Source: a virus
Lineage: Duplodnaviria > Caudoviricetes
Strand: one strand, 5' to 3'
DNA length: 40,419 bases
IMG/VR virus record: IMGVR_UViG_3300037423_000800
Location: 1 to 40,419 of that record
Under the pieces are notes generated by a model. It was not told the origin of the DNA. It saw only the letters and a list, made by a program, of their open reading frames with translations, and searched no databases. Positions 9,126 to 29,665 of this stretch are shown piece after piece. The position numbers were made by a program, and so were the translations under genes. The stretch's first letter is position 1. Each line of letters starts with the position of its first letter.

Positions 9126-10976
9126 GTGGGTATCCGCCATTCCTACACCGCGACAGGTTCGAACAACCCGAACCGGCAAGTCTCGGTCGATAGGTGGAAC
9201 GAAGCGCACACCCTCGACGGCACGCCGGGAATGCTCCTCGGCGCGGATGGGGCTGAGATCGATCCGACGACAGTCGGGGTCGGCGGTCTCAACGCCAAGT
9301 CGTTCGGCATGGTGGGCGATGGAACAACCGACAACCTCGCCGCGTGGGCTGCAATCACGGCCTATTTCAGCTCTCTCCCCTCGACCGGATATTGGGACGC
9401 CTTCAACGGAACCTACAGGCCATTTCCCAAGCTGTTCATTCCGATTGGAAATTACTATTTCTCCGCGCCTTGCGAACTCGACGGCGGGCAGTGGGACATC
9501 GAGTGCGAGGGCAACTGCGGCCAAGGCAACGGCGGCATGGGCGTTACCTTCACCTTCGCAGCTGGAAACGATGGCGTTGTCGTTCAGAGCTGGAATACCA
9601 CTGGGGTCAACGGCTCAAAGACTACTCGCGCACAAACCTACAACGCGCAGGGTTCTCGCATTCGTGGCCTTACCGTAAGGTCCCTTGGTGCGGGTTCGTA
9701 TTCGAGCGCATGTGGCTTTTACACGCGGGCAATCGCCCATCTTGAATATTGCCACGCGGTCGGATTCCCGAGCCACGGATTTGCTGGGATTGGCTCGCTT
9801 GGCGCTGGTGGGTCGTCCGAGGGCCAAGTCAGCGGAACGTCATACTTCCAGTGCTCGTCCTCCAACAACGGCGGACACGGCTTCTTCTTCGACGGGGCCG
9901 ATGCGAACTCCTGCACCATAGTAAAATGCGATAGCCGGTCCAACGGCCAATACGGGTTCATGGATAGCTCGTTCCTCGGCAACTACTATTTTGGCTGCGC
10001 GGCGTCGAGCAATGGCTGGGATGGCGCAGCGGCTAGCGGCATTCCCACCGCCTGCACCTATCTCGGCAATCGCTACTATGTGAAGCGCGGACAGGCTGCC
10101 GGAGCCTCCACCAACGCTCCCTCGGGAACGACCGCCGACAATACATGGTGGGGCTATGTCAGTGCCGGTGGAACCTTTAGCGGCATTGTCGCGTGGGTCA
10201 GCGGAACGACCTTCCAGGAGGGCGGCTCCTACTCGACCGACGACGCCAACGCATCATCCGTTTTCAGCGCCTGCTATGCGGAGAGTGACCAGAACCCAGC
10301 GCAGATCATTCCTCCGTCGCTCATCATAGGCGGGCAGCTATCAATCAGCACTGCGGGTACTCTTGCCTGTTCCATCCGAACCGATACGAGCGGCTCTCCG
10401 ATATTGGGATACAAGCACGGCTCGGCGGATTCCACCATCGAGCTTGCCAACAGCAACGTATCCTCGATCATCCGGTTCGCGCGCTATACCAACGGCGGCG
10501 CAACGCAGAATATCGACGCCAAAATCTGGACCGCAACCGGCCAGCTCATCCTCGACCATGTTGGCGGATCGAAGATCGCCTTCCGTCTCGCGCAGGCCGA
10601 GAAAATGTCCCTCACGACATCGGGGCTGCTCATCAGCGCGCTGGGCTACGGATTGGGGTTCTCCACCGGGGCTGGTACCGCCGTCACTCAGGCGACCAGC
10701 AGGACGACCGGCGTCATCGCAAACGCATCTTGCGGCGCGATCACGCTGGTTTCATCGGCAGGTTCAACCTCGTGGCAATCGTTCACCGTCACGAACAGCG
10801 CCGTTGCCGCAACCGATACGGTGCGAGTGTGCCAGAAGTCGGGGACGGACAAATATATGATCCACGTCACCAAGGTTGCGGCGGGTTCGTTCGAGATCAC
10901 TTTCGCCACGACTGGCGGAACCACGATCGAACAGCCGGTGTTCAATTTCTCAGTGATTAAGGCTGTGGCCGCCTAG
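9126..10976 (+). CDS. Tailspike / beta-helix depolymerase-like receptor-binding protein
   Basis: NAKSFGMVGDGTTDN (pectate_lyase_3-type start), LFIP.G.Y, repeated N..HGF/N..YGF beta-helix rungs. Confidence 0.8.
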   Translation: MGIRHSYTATGSNNPNRQVSVDRWNEAHTLDGTPGMLLGADGAEIDPTTVGVGGLNAKSFGMVGDGTTDNLAAWAAITAYFSSLPSTGYWDAFNGTYRPFPKLFIPIGNYYFSAPCELDGGQWDIECEGNCGQGNGGMGVTFTFAAGNDGVVVQSWNTTGVNGSKTTRAQTYNAQGSRIRGLTVRSLGAGSYSSACGFYTRAIAHLEYCHAVGFPSHGFAGIGSLGAGGSSEGQVSGTSYFQCSSSNNGGHGFFFDGADANSCTIVKCDSRSNGQYGFMDSSFLGNYYFGCAASSNGWDGAAASGIPTACTYLGNRYYVKRGQAAGASTNAPSGTTADNTWWGYVSAGGTFSGIVAWVSGTTFQEGGSYSTDDANASSVFSACYAESDQNPAQIIPPSLIIGGQLSISTAGTLACSIRTDTSGSPILGYKHGSADSTIELANSNVSSIIRFARYTNGGATQNIDAKIWTATGQLILDHVGGSKIAFRLAQAEKMSLTTSGLLISALGYGLGFSTGAGTAVTQATSRTTGVIANASCGAITLVSSAGSTSWQSFTVTNSAVAATDTVRVCQKSGTDKYMIHVTKVAAGSFEITFATTGGTTIEQPVFNFSVIKAVAA

Positions 10977-11131
10977 CTGTTCTGGACCGCCCTCGCCGCA
11001 ACGATCATAAACAGGGCAATTCCCAATAGCACCACGACCGGCCAACCCAGCGCTACCTTGAACCTGTGCCGCCGATTGGTGAGCGCAAACAGGATCACTC
11101 CGAGGACGTAAACCGAGGCGAGCCAGATCAT
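10973..11131 (-). CDS. 52-aa two-TM membrane protein (not in ORF track)
   Basis: MIWLASVYVLGVILFALTNRRHRFKVALGWPVVVLLGIALFMIVAARAVQNS; RBS GGAGGAG; ATGA overlap with upstream gene. Confidence 0.75.
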   Translation of the reverse strand: MIWLASVYVLGVILFALTNRRHRFKVALGWPVVVLLGIALFMIVAARAVQNS

Positions 11132-11352
11132 AGGCTCCTCCGATAAACGTCCGCCGCGCTTGGCCCCTTCCCGTCAGAAGGCGAGGGTTGCTCGGCAAGT
11201 TCTGTCCAGTGCGTGGCATCGCCTAGCAGCGTGTCATCATCGCCCGACCACGTAAGATGCCCCAAGCCGTTGAGATAGGCGGGCATCACATATTTGCCGT
11301 TGCTGACCCACACCTCGCGATCCGGAGGAAGGGTCTCGATAGACTGCCACAT
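11128..11352 (-). CDS. DUF551-like phage protein
   Basis: WQSIETLP...V.V and THW..L...P motifs. Confidence 0.65.
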   Translation of the reverse strand: MWQSIETLPPDREVWVSNGKYVMPAYLNGLGHLTWSGDDDTLLGDATHWTELAEQPSPSDGKGPSAADVYRRSL

Positions 11353-11423
11353 ACGCGCCCCTTTTGGTTTCCGAGCAGAGGCAGGCCCTCCTTAGCGAAA
11401 GTTAGTGCGATGAGTAAAGCGCA

Positions 11424-11597
11424 ATGAATAGCCATCACGCCGCATTAGACACAGCGACGGGGCTGTTTGCCGCCGTTGCCGTATTCAGCTTCTGGCAGGG
11501 CATTGCGTTGGCCGTGACCATTATTGCCGCGCTGGTGTCCATCGCCTGCGGGCTCATCAGGTTGCATGACCGCCTCAGATATGGACCATCCAAATGA
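11424..11597 (+). CDS. 57-aa holin-like membrane protein (not in ORF track)
   Basis: MNSHHAALDTATGLFAAVAVFSFWQGIALAVTIIAALVSIACGLIRLHDRLRYGPSK; hydrophobic core, basic C-terminus; heads the lysis cassette. Confidence 0.6.
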   Translation: MNSHHAALDTATGLFAAVAVFSFWQGIALAVTIIAALVSIACGLIRLHDRLRYGPSK

Positions 11598-11695
11598 AGC
11601 GCAAAACCTACCGAGAGCACCTTGAGGATACGGTGAAAGAACCGATCCCCGAGGACATGAAGAAACTGCTGGAAAAGCTGGAATGGCCCCGCTGA
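11594..11695 (+). CDS. 33-aa NepR-like anti-sigma-factor microprotein (not in ORF track)
   Basis: MKRKTYREHLEDTVKEPIPEDMKKLLEKLEWPR; ATGA coupling to upstream gene; R..L..TV.EPIPEDM..LL.KL matches the NepR two-helix core. Confidence 0.7.
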   Translation: MKRKTYREHLEDTVKEPIPEDMKKLLEKLEWPR

Positions 11696-11883
11696 CCGCA
11701 CGAGTGACAGCGACGGGAGCGTTCGCCCTCGCGCTGGTCAATCTCCTCTCGGCATGGGGTGTGCTTATCCCGGTGTACCTCAGTGCAACAGCGGTAACGC
11801 TGGTGAACGCGGCGGCACTAGCGGTTGCGGGGGCGTTCGTCGGAATCAAGCATCTGGTGGAGGGCAAGAGTGCCAATTCTTGA
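11683..11883 (+). CDS. Holin-like two-TM protein
   Basis: 66 aa, two hydrophobic segments, upstream of endolysin. Confidence 0.55.
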   Translation: MAPLTARVTATGAFALALVNLLSAWGVLIPVYLSATAVTLVNAAALAVAGAFVGIKHLVEGKSANS

Positions 11884-12106
11884 CCGCATAGAAGCCGCTG
11901 GCCGCGATGCGTGGCTGCGGTTCGTCAAATGGGTGAACGGGCTGTCCGCGTCGATCTTTGCTGCCGTGGGCGCCGCTTACGAAGCGCGACCCGATGCGGT
12001 GAAGGCGCTGCTACAGCAGGTTCCGGTGTGGGCGTATTTCCTCGCTGCGGTGCCGTTCTTTGCGCTGGTTAATCATGCCCTCAAGCGCGCCAAGAACGCC
12101 TCCTAA
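11870..12106 (+). CDS. Holin-like membrane protein
   Basis: GTG 11870 after GGAGGG; MPILDRIE...; two hydrophobic stretches; overlaps the endolysin start. Confidence 0.55.
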   Translation: MPILDRIEAAGRDAWLRFVKWVNGLSASIFAAVGAAYEARPDAVKALLQQVPVWAYFLAAVPFFALVNHALKRAKNAS

Positions 12107-12578
12107 AACACCGGCGCTGATTGCCGCCGCAGTCCTGCTGGCAACACCGCTGACAACCGCGTTCGAGGGGCTAAGGCTGAAGCCGTACAAAGACCCCGGC
12201 GATGGTCGCCCGACTGTCTGTTATGGTGAAACCGAGCGCCCGATGCGGACCTATACCGCAGACGAGTGCAAGATACTTCTCGGGGCAAGACAGGCGAGTG
12301 ACTACGCTCCCGCTGTATTGAAGTGTGTTCCCGAGATCGGAACGAAGTCCAACGCTTTCGCTGCATCAATCGACTTCGCTTACAATGCGGGGACTAAGGC
12401 GTTCTGCGCTTCACCGATGGCAAGGCGGTTCAACGCTGGCGATTGGGCTGGCGGCTGCAATGCCTTCAGGGGCTACTTCATTACGGCCAAAGGCAAAACC
12501 CTAAAGGGTCTAGTACGGAGGCGAGAGGCCGAGGCGGCTCTATGCCTGCGCGTAGCAACTCAAACTGCCGCCGCGTAA
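12075..12578 (+). CDS. Endolysin, GH24 phage lysozyme, probable SAR type
   Basis: FEGLRLKPYKD....PTVCYGET catalytic region, FAYNAG, GLVRRREAE; Ala-rich weakly hydrophobic N-terminus. Confidence 0.92.
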   Translation: MPSSAPRTPPKTPALIAAAVLLATPLTTAFEGLRLKPYKDPGDGRPTVCYGETERPMRTYTADECKILLGARQASDYAPAVLKCVPEIGTKSNAFAASIDFAYNAGTKAFCASPMARRFNAGDWAGGCNAFRGYFITAKGKTLKGLVRRREAEAALCLRVATQTAAA

Positions 12579-12690: not shown

Positions 12691-12719
12691 TGACTAGCAC
12701 AAATCAAGGACATTGCCAA
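12691..12719 (-). promoter_or_regulatory. Putative sigma70 promoter for the 12684 gene (leaderless geometry)
   Basis: TTGGCA (12719-12714), 17-nt spacer, GC-TAGTCA (12696-12691). Confidence 0.55.
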
Positions 12720-13309
12720 TGTTTCTCCGCTCCGCGCTGGTAGCCACGGCCCTTCTTGTGCCTACGCCAATATCCCCAGCGTCAATGACGGGGCTTGTCG
12801 TGATCTCCCCAGATGCGATCCCGGAGGTGATCTGTCCGGGCAGCGATTACACGAGCGCGGGGTCTGCCTTTCGCGTCGGCCCTGACGGCCTCCTGCTGAG
12901 CGTGAACCACGTAACCTCCGAGCACAACTGCGCCATCGACGGCAAGCCAATCAACATCGCCTACGCATCACCGACAGAGGACTTCTCCGAACTGCTTGGG
13001 GACGAGGGGCCGTACCTCCAGATCGACTGCGGCGGGTTCGTAGAAGGACGCAAATACATCGCGTTCGGCCATGCTCGTGGCGAGCCTCAGATTACCACGG
13101 TTGAACTCATCGGCACGGGCGCAATCGATGACGGTGAGGCGATCCTTGTCGGCATGATCCCGGTGATTCCTGGGATGTCAGGCGGTCCCATTGTCGATGC
13201 GGAAACGGGCCGCGTCGTCGGTACCGTGAACAAGGAAAACTTCGAGGCCGGTCTGAGCTGGTCCGTCCAACTCAAAGACACTCCCATCTGCAAAAAGGGC
13301 ATCGCATGA
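12719..13309 (+). CDS. Exported trypsin-like (S1) serine protease
   Basis: GSAF..., LLSVNHV (His), ED (Asp candidate), PGMSGGP (Ser), GRVVG; N-terminal signal peptide; RBS AAGGA. Confidence 0.85.
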   Translation: MFLRSALVATALLVPTPISPASMTGLVVISPDAIPEVICPGSDYTSAGSAFRVGPDGLLLSVNHVTSEHNCAIDGKPINIAYASPTEDFSELLGDEGPYLQIDCGGFVEGRKYIAFGHARGEPQITTVELIGTGAIDDGEAILVGMIPVIPGMSGGPIVDAETGRVVGTVNKENFEAGLSWSVQLKDTPICKKGIA

Positions 13310-13461
13310 CAGCGTGGCTACCTTTCATCTTCTACATTTGGTTCGTCGGCGGCCTAATTGTCGTGGCGAACACCTCTGATATCGGCACGGCGCTCGCGTG
13401 GCCGCTCATCGTGGCAATCAAAGCGGCCAAGGCAATCCGCAATTCCGTGAGGGCAGCATGA
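13306..13461 (+). CDS. 51-aa membrane protein (not in ORF track)
   Basis: MTAWLPFIFYIWFVGGLIVVANTSDIGTALAWPLIVAIKAAKAIRNSVRAA; ATGA overlaps at both ends. Confidence 0.7.
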   Translation: MTAWLPFIFYIWFVGGLIVVANTSDIGTALAWPLIVAIKAAKAIRNSVRAA

Positions 13462-13964
13462 TCTTCCTCCGCCTGCTCGGCCCGTTCGGCATTGCCGGGG
13501 CCGCGATCTCGCTCATCCTCGGCGTCCTGCTCGGCGTCCAGAAGATGGAAACGCGGCACTGGAAGAAGCAGGCCGACCAGTACGAGGCTCTTTACCACCA
13601 CGAACACGCGACCGTCCTCGGATTGGTCGAGGCGCAGGAAGAGGCGAAAGCCGACAACCAAGCGCAGGTCAGGAAAATCGAACAGCAATATCAGAGGAAT
13701 ACCGACGATGAACGCCAAGCGTACTTGCGCGATCTTGCTAAGCTGCGCGCTGATCGGATGCGCTCACAGGGAAAAGCCGCTCCAGGTAATCCCAACCCAG
13801 CCCCAACACCCGCAACTCCAGCCCCCGCCCCCGGAGCTGATGGAACTCGACTGTGTGTTCCTGCCGAGTCCGCCCTGTGTGAAGCGGGGGCCGAAATCGA
13901 ACTGAGGCTGATGCATCTCCAGAACCTTCTCGAGAAGCAATTGGCCATCAATCCAAACAATTAA
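13458..13964 (+). CDS. Rz: Inner-membrane spanin (Rz-like)
   Basis: N-terminal TM, coiled-coil body, Pro-rich hinge, two Cys; contains a nested lipoprotein gene. Confidence 0.8.
   Translation: MIFLRLLGPFGIAGAAISLILGVLLGVQKMETRHWKKQADQYEALYHHEHATVLGLVEAQEEAKADNQAQVRKIEQQYQRNTDDERQAYLRDLAKLRADRMRSQGKAAPGNPNPAPTPATPAPAPGADGTRLCVPAESALCEAGAEIELRLMHLQNLLEKQLAINPNN
13708..13905 (+). CDS. Rz1: Outer-membrane spanin lipoprotein (Rz1-like), fully nested in Rz
   Basis: RBS GAGGA; MNAKRTCAILLSCALIG|C lipobox; Pro-rich mature part; +1 frame inside Rz. Confidence 0.82.
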   Translation: MNAKRTCAILLSCALIGCAHREKPLQVIPTQPQHPQLQPPPPELMELDCVFLPSPPCVKRGPKSN

Positions 13965-15586: not shown

Positions 15587-16795
15587 CTATACATTTTCGA
15601 GCTTCTTTGCAACCGAAATCGGCGTTCCGTAAGATGGCGTGACACGAAAGTGATTCGTGAGCCATTTGTTCGCTTCTGCACAAACCTCGTGCCAAATGGC
15701 GCTAAGTGCCTGTTTCACATGCGGAAGTCGCTCCGGATCGTACTTGGCGTAAACCTGGGTGATTCGGCTCTCGCTCGTATGCCCGAGCAGCCCCGCGATG
15801 TCCGTTAGTGACACGCCCCGGCGCCGCAGCTCCGTCGCTATCGTGTGGCGGATCGTCTTGGGCACAATCTCTGGCGGCAAATCCAACGCTTCGCGCATTG
15901 TGCGCCACCATGTTTTCCGGCTCTTGACTTTGGCGTGAGGGGAGTCTGCCCACGCTTCGAGCCAAGGCCGGAACTCGTCTATTACCGGGACCACCGCGTT
16001 CCGCTTCTTTGTGCGTGGCGCCCCCGCAGGGTGCGTGTCAAACACTGCTCCGCGCCCTTTCCACTGCTCCGCGACGTTCCACTTCAGGATCGCGTCCGGG
16101 CGGCAAGCGGTGGCAATCATCGCCAGCACCCACCGCAGCGCCTCAATATCGTAGGCCGCGTATCCCACAATCGAGCCAAGCTGCTCGACCGTCAGCCGCA
16201 CGTCTCTCGGCGGCGATCTGTGCTCAGTGGGCACGGCGGGAACCTTTGGCGCGTAGGGAATGCGCCCCTCCGACACGGCGTGGTTGAACGCCGCTCTCAC
16301 ATCGTCAAAGCTGCGCTGTACCGCCTCTCCGCTGACGCCTTTTGATGTGTGCCGGTAAATCTCCCCTTGCCACTCAATCTCGTAGCTGTGTGGCTGCATC
16401 CTCCAGCGCATGAACCTCCGGAACACTTCCGGCTTCATGTCCGCGATGGTCGCCGCAAGCGTCACGGTGTCCCTGTCGAGGAAGGCGAGGAATACCCGCA
16501 GCGAATTAGCCGTGGCTGCGGAATTGATCCTGGTTCGCCCGTGCTCGCGCCAGTATTGTACGATGGCGGTAGCCACCAAAGCAGCAGATGGCTCCTGCCG
16601 ACCGTCTGCCAAGTCGTTTGCATGATGGGCGAGGATGACGGGGATTGCATCGTCTAGCGTCCGGCAACCGCTGCTCTTGCTGCGAGTAACCTTTGCTCGT
16701 TCGTCGTACCACCTGATCTGGAGGAATGGCGATTGCTCGCGGGCGGCAAGCCAGAAGCGCCCGACAGTGTAGAGCCGCTTTTCCTGCCTGCCCAT
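15587..16795 (-). CDS. int: Tyrosine recombinase / integrase
   Basis: Catalytic R (TACR), K..RH (KTIRHT), H (LLGH), Y (QVYAKY); adjacent attP. Confidence 0.93.
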   Translation of the reverse strand: MGRQEKRLYTVGRFWLAAREQSPFLQIRWYDERAKVTRSKSSGCRTLDDAIPVILAHHANDLADGRQEPSAALVATAIVQYWREHGRTRINSAATANSLRVFLAFLDRDTVTLAATIADMKPEVFRRFMRWRMQPHSYEIEWQGEIYRHTSKGVSGEAVQRSFDDVRAAFNHAVSEGRIPYAPKVPAVPTEHRSPPRDVRLTVEQLGSIVGYAAYDIEALRWVLAMIATACRPDAILKWNVAEQWKGRGAVFDTHPAGAPRTKKRNAVVPVIDEFRPWLEAWADSPHAKVKSRKTWWRTMREALDLPPEIVPKTIRHTIATELRRRGVSLTDIAGLLGHTSESRITQVYAKYDPERLPHVKQALSAIWHEVCAEANKWLTNHFRVTPSYGTPISVAKKLENV

Positions 16796-28288: not shown

Positions 28289-28441
28289 ATGGAGGACGAA
28301 CTACGCGAGCTGTTACTTTCCGGCACGCTATCTCTAACATCGTTCGACGGGCATTGTGTCCGTATCGACTTCGAGAGCCGCGAGGAAGCGGAGGATATGT
28401 TCGATTTTCTCGATGAACTTGCGGGAGGCACGAATGGCTAA
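28289..28441 (+). CDS. 50-aa FE.REEAE-family protein (not in ORF track)
   Basis: MEDELRELLLSGTLSLTSFDGHCVRIDFESREEAEDMFDFLDELAGGTNG; RBS GGAGGG; alternative in-frame ATG at 28268. Confidence 0.65.
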   Translation: MEDELRELLLSGTLSLTSFDGHCVRIDFESREEAEDMFDFLDELAGGTNG

Positions 28442-29060
28442 ACGCGGGAGACCGAGAAAGTCAGGACCACGCAAGCACGATGGTTCGCTTGAGCGTGGAA
28501 AGCTTGTTCCTCCACCGGACCACATCGTTGCCCGAAGAAAGCTGTTCTCGTTCGTGGTGAGCGAGAAAGGCGGAAGCATCGACCAGGACACGTGCGACGG
28601 GATCGGGCAGTTCCACGCGCTGGGGTTGCTCGACGGCCAGCCGATTGACGGGCTGGAGCTGCGGAACATCGGCAGGGAATGGAGAGACTGGTTCGTGACC
28701 CTTCTACGCAGGCAGGGCTTCAAGGCCGGTGGATACGAGCGAATGGACAAGGCGAAGGAACGCGAGCCCCGGCACAACGAACGCCTTGATCGAATGGATG
28801 ATTCGCTGAGCGGTTATGAGCGACACGCGCTGTATTCGCTGCTGATCGATCCTGTGGTGGGCTCTTGGCCCTGCGGTGAATCAGATGCGCCGTGGGTGCG
28901 CTCGATCATCGCGGAGGAACTGCTGAAACGCAACCGTTACGTTGCGAGCTTCCGCTTTCCAGATGCTCACGACAGGGAATTACTGGAGGCTGCGATACGC
29001 GGGTTATTTTGTTTGTACGATGCGAGTTTGCCGGGGAGATACGAGAGGAGGGCGGCGTGA
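28434..29060 (+). CDS. Putative late-gene regulator (Q-like position)
   Basis: MAKRGRPRKSG basic start; last large gene before the late promoter and terminator; function inferred. Confidence 0.55.
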   Translation: MAKRGRPRKSGPRKHDGSLERGKLVPPPDHIVARRKLFSFVVSEKGGSIDQDTCDGIGQFHALGLLDGQPIDGLELRNIGREWRDWFVTLLRRQGFKAGGYERMDKAKEREPRHNERLDRMDDSLSGYERHALYSLLIDPVVGSWPCGESDAPWVRSIIAEELLKRNRYVASFRFPDAHDRELLEAAIRGLFCLYDASLPGRYERRAA

Positions 29061-29194: not shown

Positions 29195-29380
29195 ATGGAT
29201 GAATTGCGCGAGAAGCTGGCATCCGCACTGGTTGCCGAAATAGAACGGCAATCTGGCGGAAATTGGCCGCGCGACATGCGCGGCCTCATTGGCGTGATCG
29301 ATGATTATATCGACTTCGCAGAGCTGGCGGACAGCGCAATCGCAGCAATCCATCAGAAAGAACAGGGAACCAACGTATAA
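29195..29380 (+). CDS. Hypothetical protein
   Basis: RBS AGGAGGTGA; 61 aa. Confidence 0.7.
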   Translation: MDELREKLASALVAEIERQSGGNWPRDMRGLIGVIDDYIDFAELADSAIAAIHQKEQGTNV

Positions 29381-29396
29381 TTCTGATCGTTGTTCC
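29366..29396. promoter_or_regulatory. Bidirectional EcfG/sigmaT-type promoter motif
   Basis: + strand GGAAC-N17-CGTT (29366-29391); - strand GGAAC-N16-CGTT (29396-29372). Confidence 0.45.
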
Positions 29397-29406
29397 GCGT
29401 AGGGAC

Positions 29407-29435
29407 TTGACGCGGACCCGAATTTATGAGACAAT
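29407..29435 (+). promoter_or_regulatory. Late (pR'-like) sigma70 promoter
   Basis: TTGACG-N17-GACAAT in the largest intergenic gap. Confidence 0.75.
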
Positions 29436-29491: not shown

Positions 29492-29665
29492 CAGCGCCTG
29501 ACACCAAGACACGGCGGCGCTGTCCGGCCAGCCCCAACCGAACGCAATCATAGAAACGCCAGTATGGCACGCTGACGGCTCTGGCGAGCTGGCCGGAAGA
29601 TTTCATGGAAATCCGCGCTCCTGCGGATAGGCCGCTGCGGCGGTCGCTTTCTTGGGAGAACGACA

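Follow-up and report, generated by a model that had tools for sequence, protein, structure and literature searches.

The general stress response of alphaproteobacteria is restrained by NepR, the anti-sigma factor of the PhyR-NepR-EcfG switch; to our knowledge, work on this switch has been confined to its role in host stress. EcfG is bound by the two helices of NepR, and so is PhyR once phosphorylated (PMC4551977). The same study describes an engineered Caulobacter core, NepR-SV (Q31-E62), that co-purifies 1:1 with sigmaT and solubilises it, yet fails to inhibit sigmaT in cells. This core binds the isolated sigma-like domain of PhyR at 455 nM, with no binding to full-length phospho-PhyR by SPR, and removal of the NepR termini weakened the measured binding from 191 to 455 nM (PMC4551977). 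In Sphingomonas melonis, the L32A and Y36A mutations weakened NepR, whose R33 and M48 were dispensable; the paralogue NepR2, with about 30 residues before the helix-1 Leu (L31), binds PhyR, showed no EcfG binding and lowers the response when overexpressed (PMC6599016). Two M. extorquens NepR paralogues also bind PhyR and showed no EcfG binding, and overexpression of META2p0735 lowers the M. extorquens response (PMC4814048). From phages, T7 Gp5.7 shows that blocking the stress polymerase can be of advantage to a phage (10.1101/262279).

The gene we describe here encodes a 33-aa peptide that shares with NepR (PF18557; NF051865; PDB chains 2lfw_B and 3t0y_B) two helices, an E-x-[VIL]-P linker and the register R, V, E, P, M/F, LL, KL. 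Unlike NepR, which is found at a stress locus and measures 62-68 aa, the phage gene sits in a lysis cassette, and its product lacks the N-terminal arm and has the helix-1 L and Y swapped; the phage family is also basic (median +3), whereas host cores are acidic (-3). The peptide covers nearly the same span as NepR-SV, aligning with Caulobacter NepR residues 33-65, but NepR-SV is a laboratory truncation without anti-sigma activity in cells, whereas the phage peptide is natural, under selection and remodelled in helix 1. NepR2 and META2p0735 resemble it as divergent NepR-like proteins that lower the response; they are chromosomal, EcfG-induced feedback genes, whereas coupling to lysis genes marks the one in the phage, and NepR2 has its long segment ahead of helix 1. 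The nearest functional precedent is T7 Gp5.7, likewise a small phage protein; it blocks the host stress-sigma polymerase, in its case the E. coli sigmaS holoenzyme, shows no sign of NepR kinship and is not a captured host regulator.

The window, by which we mean the whole stretch of DNA analysed, is a 40.4-kb virus record rated complete. A PHROG scan of 70 of its ORFs identified an integrase, repressor-like genes, terminase, portal, tail genes, endolysin and spanin, a set of integrase, repressor-like, structural and lysis genes from which we conclude that this soil phage is temperate. The same scan found no RNA polymerase gene, sigma factor or PhyR, and the neighbours of the peptide gene are lysis genes (Table 1). 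At least half of the words of this region are present in twelve soil or rhizosphere DNA runs; no RNA run was listed as containing it. Contigs from four DNA runs contained no variants inside the 33-aa ORF.

Table 1. Features of the phage window that bear on the NepR-like gene and its expression.
Feature	Position	Strand	Basis or remark
57-aa membrane protein, holin/antiholin-like by position; stop overlaps peptide start (ATGA)	11424..11597	+	
NepR-like core-only peptide, 33 aa; predicted helix 6-15, EPIP linker, predicted helix 20-28	11594..11695	+	sequence, profiles, prediction
66-aa two-segment membrane protein, overlapping the final 13 bases of the peptide gene	11683..11883	+	
78-aa membrane protein ahead of endolysin, holin-like	11870..12106	+	
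Endolysin (Phage_lysozyme), hydrophobic N-terminal segment	12078..12578	+	segment putatively signal-anchor-like
Trypsin-like protease, accessory in cassette	12713..13309	+	
Rz-like spanin	13458..13964	+	phrog_1327, E 3.2e-6
Integrase, used for the host assignment	15587..16795	-	
Sigma70-type consensus promoter, candidate late-operon start	29407..29435	+	consensus match only; 2 found, 0.9 expected

A sequence-only reading of this DNA had proposed a small ORF, ATGA-coupled to a holin-like gene, within the lysis cassette. We confirmed the ORF, which encodes 33 residues and a stop, its overlap with the TGA of the preceding hydrophobic gene, and the cassette order of membrane gene, peptide gene, two membrane genes, endolysin, protease and spanin. 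The term holin-like fits the preceding gene in size, hydrophobicity and position, but this 57-aa protein has no credible Pfam or PHROG match. The peptide ORF has a per-codon coding score of 0.181, the second best among 12 local ORFs scored, and gene calling on 10 JGI/IMG contigs includes an identical protein. Antisense ORFs of 88 and 143 aa over the site were rejected as shadows, with low or negative coding scores.

Compared with a relative's locus (L003), the 57-aa gene shows 2/1/7 changes at codon positions 1/2/3. In the 66-aa gene the changes number 5/2/8, fitting a protein frame. No family match was found for the 78-aa membrane protein; relatives' genes at its position match DUF7940. The protease looks secreted, and relatives carry a transglutaminase-like or other exported protein there. 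Between the tail gene and the cassette, two small minus-strand genes (52 and 74 aa) at 10973-11352 occupy a variable accessory slot, where L003 has a different sequence.

A candidate late operon from the promoter at 29407 would cover the head and tail genes and then the lysis genes. A 234-aa gene just ahead of this promoter (28356-29060, +) has no PHROG or Pfam match; its position would suit an antiterminator or a regulator of late genes. Directly before the sigma70-type promoter, at the likely start of the late genes, two divergent EcfG-type motifs overlap (29366-29391, +, and 29372-29396, -), and a terminator-like hairpin lies beyond it at 29630-29645.

The central claim of the sequence-only reading was that the peptide is a NepR core. 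PF18557 is indeed its sole Pfam match (E 9.5e-5), although at 22.4 bits it stays under the 25.7-bit cut-off. NCBIfam NF051865 did not match the window peptide, and the top PDB match of the peptide alone was NepR, not significantly (E 0.4). Against a host-only profile of 93 NepR cores from Sphingomonadaceae genomes, with zero phage sequences, the peptide scored 26.5 bits, and none of 15,919 scored shuffles (of 20,000 made) was as high, the maximum being 13.3. Conversely, a phage-only profile of 41 phage-type sequences, searched against 177,635 PDB sequences, found only 2lfw_B (E 1.7e-7) and 3t0y_B (E 3.5e-6), the two NepR chains. Among those 41 sequences, 34 matched PF18557 at E<=0.01 and 18 matched NF051865 at E<=0.1. 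We take these results together as establishing the proposed homology to NepR. The predicted fold consists of two helices around the four-residue EPIP linker (mean pLDDT 87). Searches with the 33-residue model are uninformative at such size (no Foldseek matches; best Z 2.6 in a VIA fold search), and the ESM Atlas gave no usable match to the peptide.

The resemblance is uneven along the peptide. The linker Glu and Pro and the helix-2 Leu-Leu-x-Lys-Leu fit the host consensus, with 75-99% conservation across the 93 hosts, while in helix 1 the host L (99%) is replaced by Y, the host Y (86%) by L, the host G/A (92%) by R and the preceding hydrophobe by K. The NepR pattern given in the earlier reading thus holds at 11 of 13 specified positions and breaks at the helix-1 L and Y/F. 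In terms of the residues tested in S. melonis, the peptide retains the R33 and M48 equivalents and exchanges those of L32 and Y36 for Y and L. Across 42 family sequences the helix-1 L is kept by 81% and the Y/F by 78%; the Y/L swap is common to 8 of the 42, which share 47-70% identity and retain R, E, P and the helix-2 leucines. The N-terminal region was correctly described as missing: the conserved helix-1 position is preceded by only five residues where hosts have a median of 31, and the open frame could add at most eight more, where only 1 of 70 hosts has eight or fewer. We therefore file the phage gene, on its sequence, as NepR-like and not as a member of NepR, because the Pfam cut-off, the N-terminal arm, the helix-1 residues and the locus all speak against membership.

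We examined conservation in lysis loci collected via the endolysin and not via the peptide, and used the host-only profile to scan 12,458 frames from 96 of them. Eleven frames reached E<0.1, two of them copies of the window, and every one directly follows the first membrane gene of a cassette, and the best reversed frame reached only E 4.9. Beyond the window, 15 related cassettes had upstream sequence and either an endolysin at least 53% identical or the window's fourth gene. Nine of these held a frame at E<0.1 and 14 a slot ORF by position; in five (L038, L142, L042, L043 and L148) the similar ORF scored weakly or not at all, and L151 had no slot ORF within its only 600 nt of upstream sequence. 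Two loci were without upstream sequence, and the other 77 had no match under E 1. Two slot relatives, L149 (32.5 bits) and L150 (32.0 bits), pass the Pfam cut-off, and when 22 virus records were scanned in full against Pfam in a separate run, the four matches all fell in the same slot. The expectation that frame and slot recur in related phages was thus borne out.

Coupling to the preceding gene is regular, with a close overlap with its stop codon in 10 of 11 slot ORFs inspected; that of L043 starts further inside the preceding gene. This overlap would suit a NepR descendant repurposed as a lysis accessory whose target is its coupled membrane protein or a different component of lysis, for instance in timing or as an antiholin-like factor, and not on the stress switch, as would the strong drift of helix 1 in the window's subfamily. 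We regard that role as unlikely, given that conservation falls on the same columns as in host NepR and that EcfG-type promoters adjoin the gene in relatives. Moreover, blastp sorts the preceding genes into four groups across loci while the peptide is retained, and four unrelated types leave no single conserved lysis partner.

Searching with a profile built from 14 slot ORFs yielded 51 clusters, 29-70 aa in length and mostly close to 40. Genomic contexts of clusters P0006 and P0007 were searched for and not found, so these and most of the 51 belong to the family by sequence only. Three of the clusters, P0176, P0181 and P0182, measure 56-67 aa and could represent normal NepRs of hosts; they and three sequences with linker deletions are excluded from the column counts. 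A subfamily comprising L007:2587-2709, P0184 and P0172 has a two-residue linker deletion and has lost the conserved Pro; it has no Pfam match, yet seven members in its cluster.

The frame is under purifying selection, with pN/pS of 0.09-0.33 in seven DNA pairs and the lowest value in the peptide frame in all seven; the third-position excess in two non-overlapping pairs gave p of 0.004 and 0.001. These values, with the shuffle, reversed-frame and slot controls and the relatives above the cut-off, speak against a short amphipathic ORF that resembles NepR by chance, or is no gene. The length of 33 aa, the score under the family cut-off and the missing NCBIfam match fit such an account, which we nevertheless consider already largely refuted and give almost no weight. 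It is also improbable that the family is functional and the window's subfamily a relic, kept as a spacer for translational coupling. Two functionally tested residues are changed in that subfamily, and its one DNA pair shows three synonymous changes and one non-synonymous, but the Y/L swap preserves two large hydrophobes and is shared by eight family sequences, which keep R, E, P and the helix-2 leucines.

The core is exchanged as a module, since L146 and L149 are 97% identical in both flanking genes and only 43% in the core (ungapped). L146, L148 and L149 at 2414-2545 have cores 35-43% alike within flanks 88-100% alike, with the break near the helix-2 end. A tree of 67 cores (31 columns) has five changes, and a single phage clade has a p-AU of 0.27; the tree is compatible with a single capture as well as with repeated ones. 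No match to the peptide was found by tblastn in 50,697 phage records, and no copy of the window's subfamily in 401 Sphingomonadaceae genomes searched.

Given that related phages keep the gene in the same slot, it likely dampens the host stress response late in infection. How it would do so is proposed from homology, and 'anti-sigma' is one of several possible modes, because Q31-E62 is inactive in cells and the L32/Y36 positions are mismatched. We tentatively suggest, as plausible but short of probable, that the late-made peptide lowers the response by binding host EcfG in the NepR groove. Host RNA polymerase would make a late transcript from which it and the lysis proteins are translated together, a timing that would follow from operon position and the consensus promoter at 29407, in a sphingomonad presumed to possess PhyR-NepR-EcfG. 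Lysis proteins accumulating in the envelope, or outside stress, would activate the switch, and free EcfG would then compete for polymerase and induce protective genes. The peptide would hold EcfG, and the host's phospho-PhyR would not pull it off, because the N-terminal arm that phospho-PhyR needs is absent. By analogy with the Caulobacter truncation, a bare core would keep EcfG as its full-length partner, and a PhyR-proof core would favour the phage.

Several observations count against EcfG binding. The near-identical span Q31-E62 is inactive in cells and the peptide is two residues shorter at the N terminus; the helix-1 L32/Y36 equivalents are changed; the orphan paralogues tested bound PhyR and not EcfG; and the peptide combines its sub-threshold Pfam score and lack of an NF051865 match with the absence of an EcfG-type promoter near its gene. 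The complex predicted for the peptide and a sphingomonad EcfG, from alignments of 41 and 24 rows, scored 0.02 against a mark of 0.32 with its controls not folded, and weighs on neither side. [quoted passage not shown] We find this decoy role doubtful, as SPR detected no interaction between core-only NepR and full-length phospho-PhyR, and about 30 residues precede the helix-1 Leu of NepR2, against five in the peptide.

Some relatives carry a further link to EcfG. An EcfG-type promoter faces the NepR-like gene in 6 of 14 slot loci, which are of three sequence types and do not include the window. It consists of GGAAC-N17/18-GTT on the opposite strand, 247-326 nt past the peptide-gene start, against a background of 0.0015 per 100 nt for this type of motif; it is the motif of EcfG in S. 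melonis (PMC6599016). These minus-strand sites lie at L008:2704-2728, L043:917-941, about 2682-2706 in L146, L148 and L149, and about 1470-1494 in L150. Long C-terminal tails of the relatives' NepR-like ORFs overlie the facing promoter, which may be incidental. Beyond it follow about 150 nt with a C-rich tract, and EcfG could possibly drive a small or antisense RNA from this promoter. In this the six relatives alone resemble GsrN-type EcfG-dependent sRNAs (PMC5869019), with an EcfG-type promoter, about 150 nt and a C-rich tract; unlike GsrN, their element has no Rfam match and folds no better than shuffles in three of four cases (z 0.0, -2.2, -0.6, +0.8), and a structured RNA is not supported.

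The window differs from these relatives. No GGAAC-N16-18-CGTT with at most one mismatch occurs at 11200-12200, so the window gene shows no EcfG-dependent promoter of its own of the NepR2 type. Its 66-aa gene occupies the place of the antisense element of the six relatives, and the idea that this gene conceals their promoter was rejected, as there is no motif and the changes fit the protein frame. Loose EcfG-type motifs number nine in the window where 4.05 would be expected, a count that 4 of 100 shuffles equalled. This excess, the relatives' promoters, and the binding and solubilisation of sigmaT by truncated NepR without inhibition would agree with a core that binds EcfG without shutting it and ousts full-length NepR, raising the response. 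Such an activator is in our judgement a long shot: no published NepR-like activator was found in the literature examined, and displacement is made harder by the weakened binding on removal of the termini (191 to 455 nM). Its supposed benefit, an equally slim prospect, would be longer cell survival or activation of EcfG-type promoters that the phage itself carries.

A sphingomonad is the probable host. Of 301 Sphingomonadaceae genomes, 5 contain integrase homologs (41-50%), versus 0 of 401 drawn class-wide, and the sole genome match in an endolysin scan was a Novosphingobium assembly (51%); one 66% integrase homolog, on a 44-kb contig, is labelled Bradyrhizobium. Near the prophage-like integrase sites of the five genomes we found no NepR-like match. 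There were 258 integrase relatives at E<=1e-30 among candidates scored, those listed being almost all metagenomic, and the group is a large uncultured soil phage group. EcfG with a NepR-like N-terminal segment, described for Methylobacterium, also occurs beside nepR in host loci L179, L183, L205, L233 and L234.

In the literature as covered by titles and the starts of abstracts, we found no phage-encoded NepR; the family is unnamed because its peptides are too short for most annotation. By sequence, the NepR-like phage gene is real and family-wide. More speculatively, and rather less than an even prospect, a widespread sphingomonad-phage family captured an anti-sigma core and cut its release arm, giving an un-switchable brake made with the lysis proteins; the core would be exchanged like a host-range module, and some members would read EcfG via the facing promoter, tying lysis to stress. 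A selected NepR derivative beside lysis genes suggests that the PhyR-NepR-EcfG response affects phage yield or lysis timing, and if the captured brake is true, the EcfG response restricts phages. Although the core-only NepR made in the laboratory is inactive in cells, about 45 natural core-only variants exist, and these may reveal changes that replace the disordered arm.
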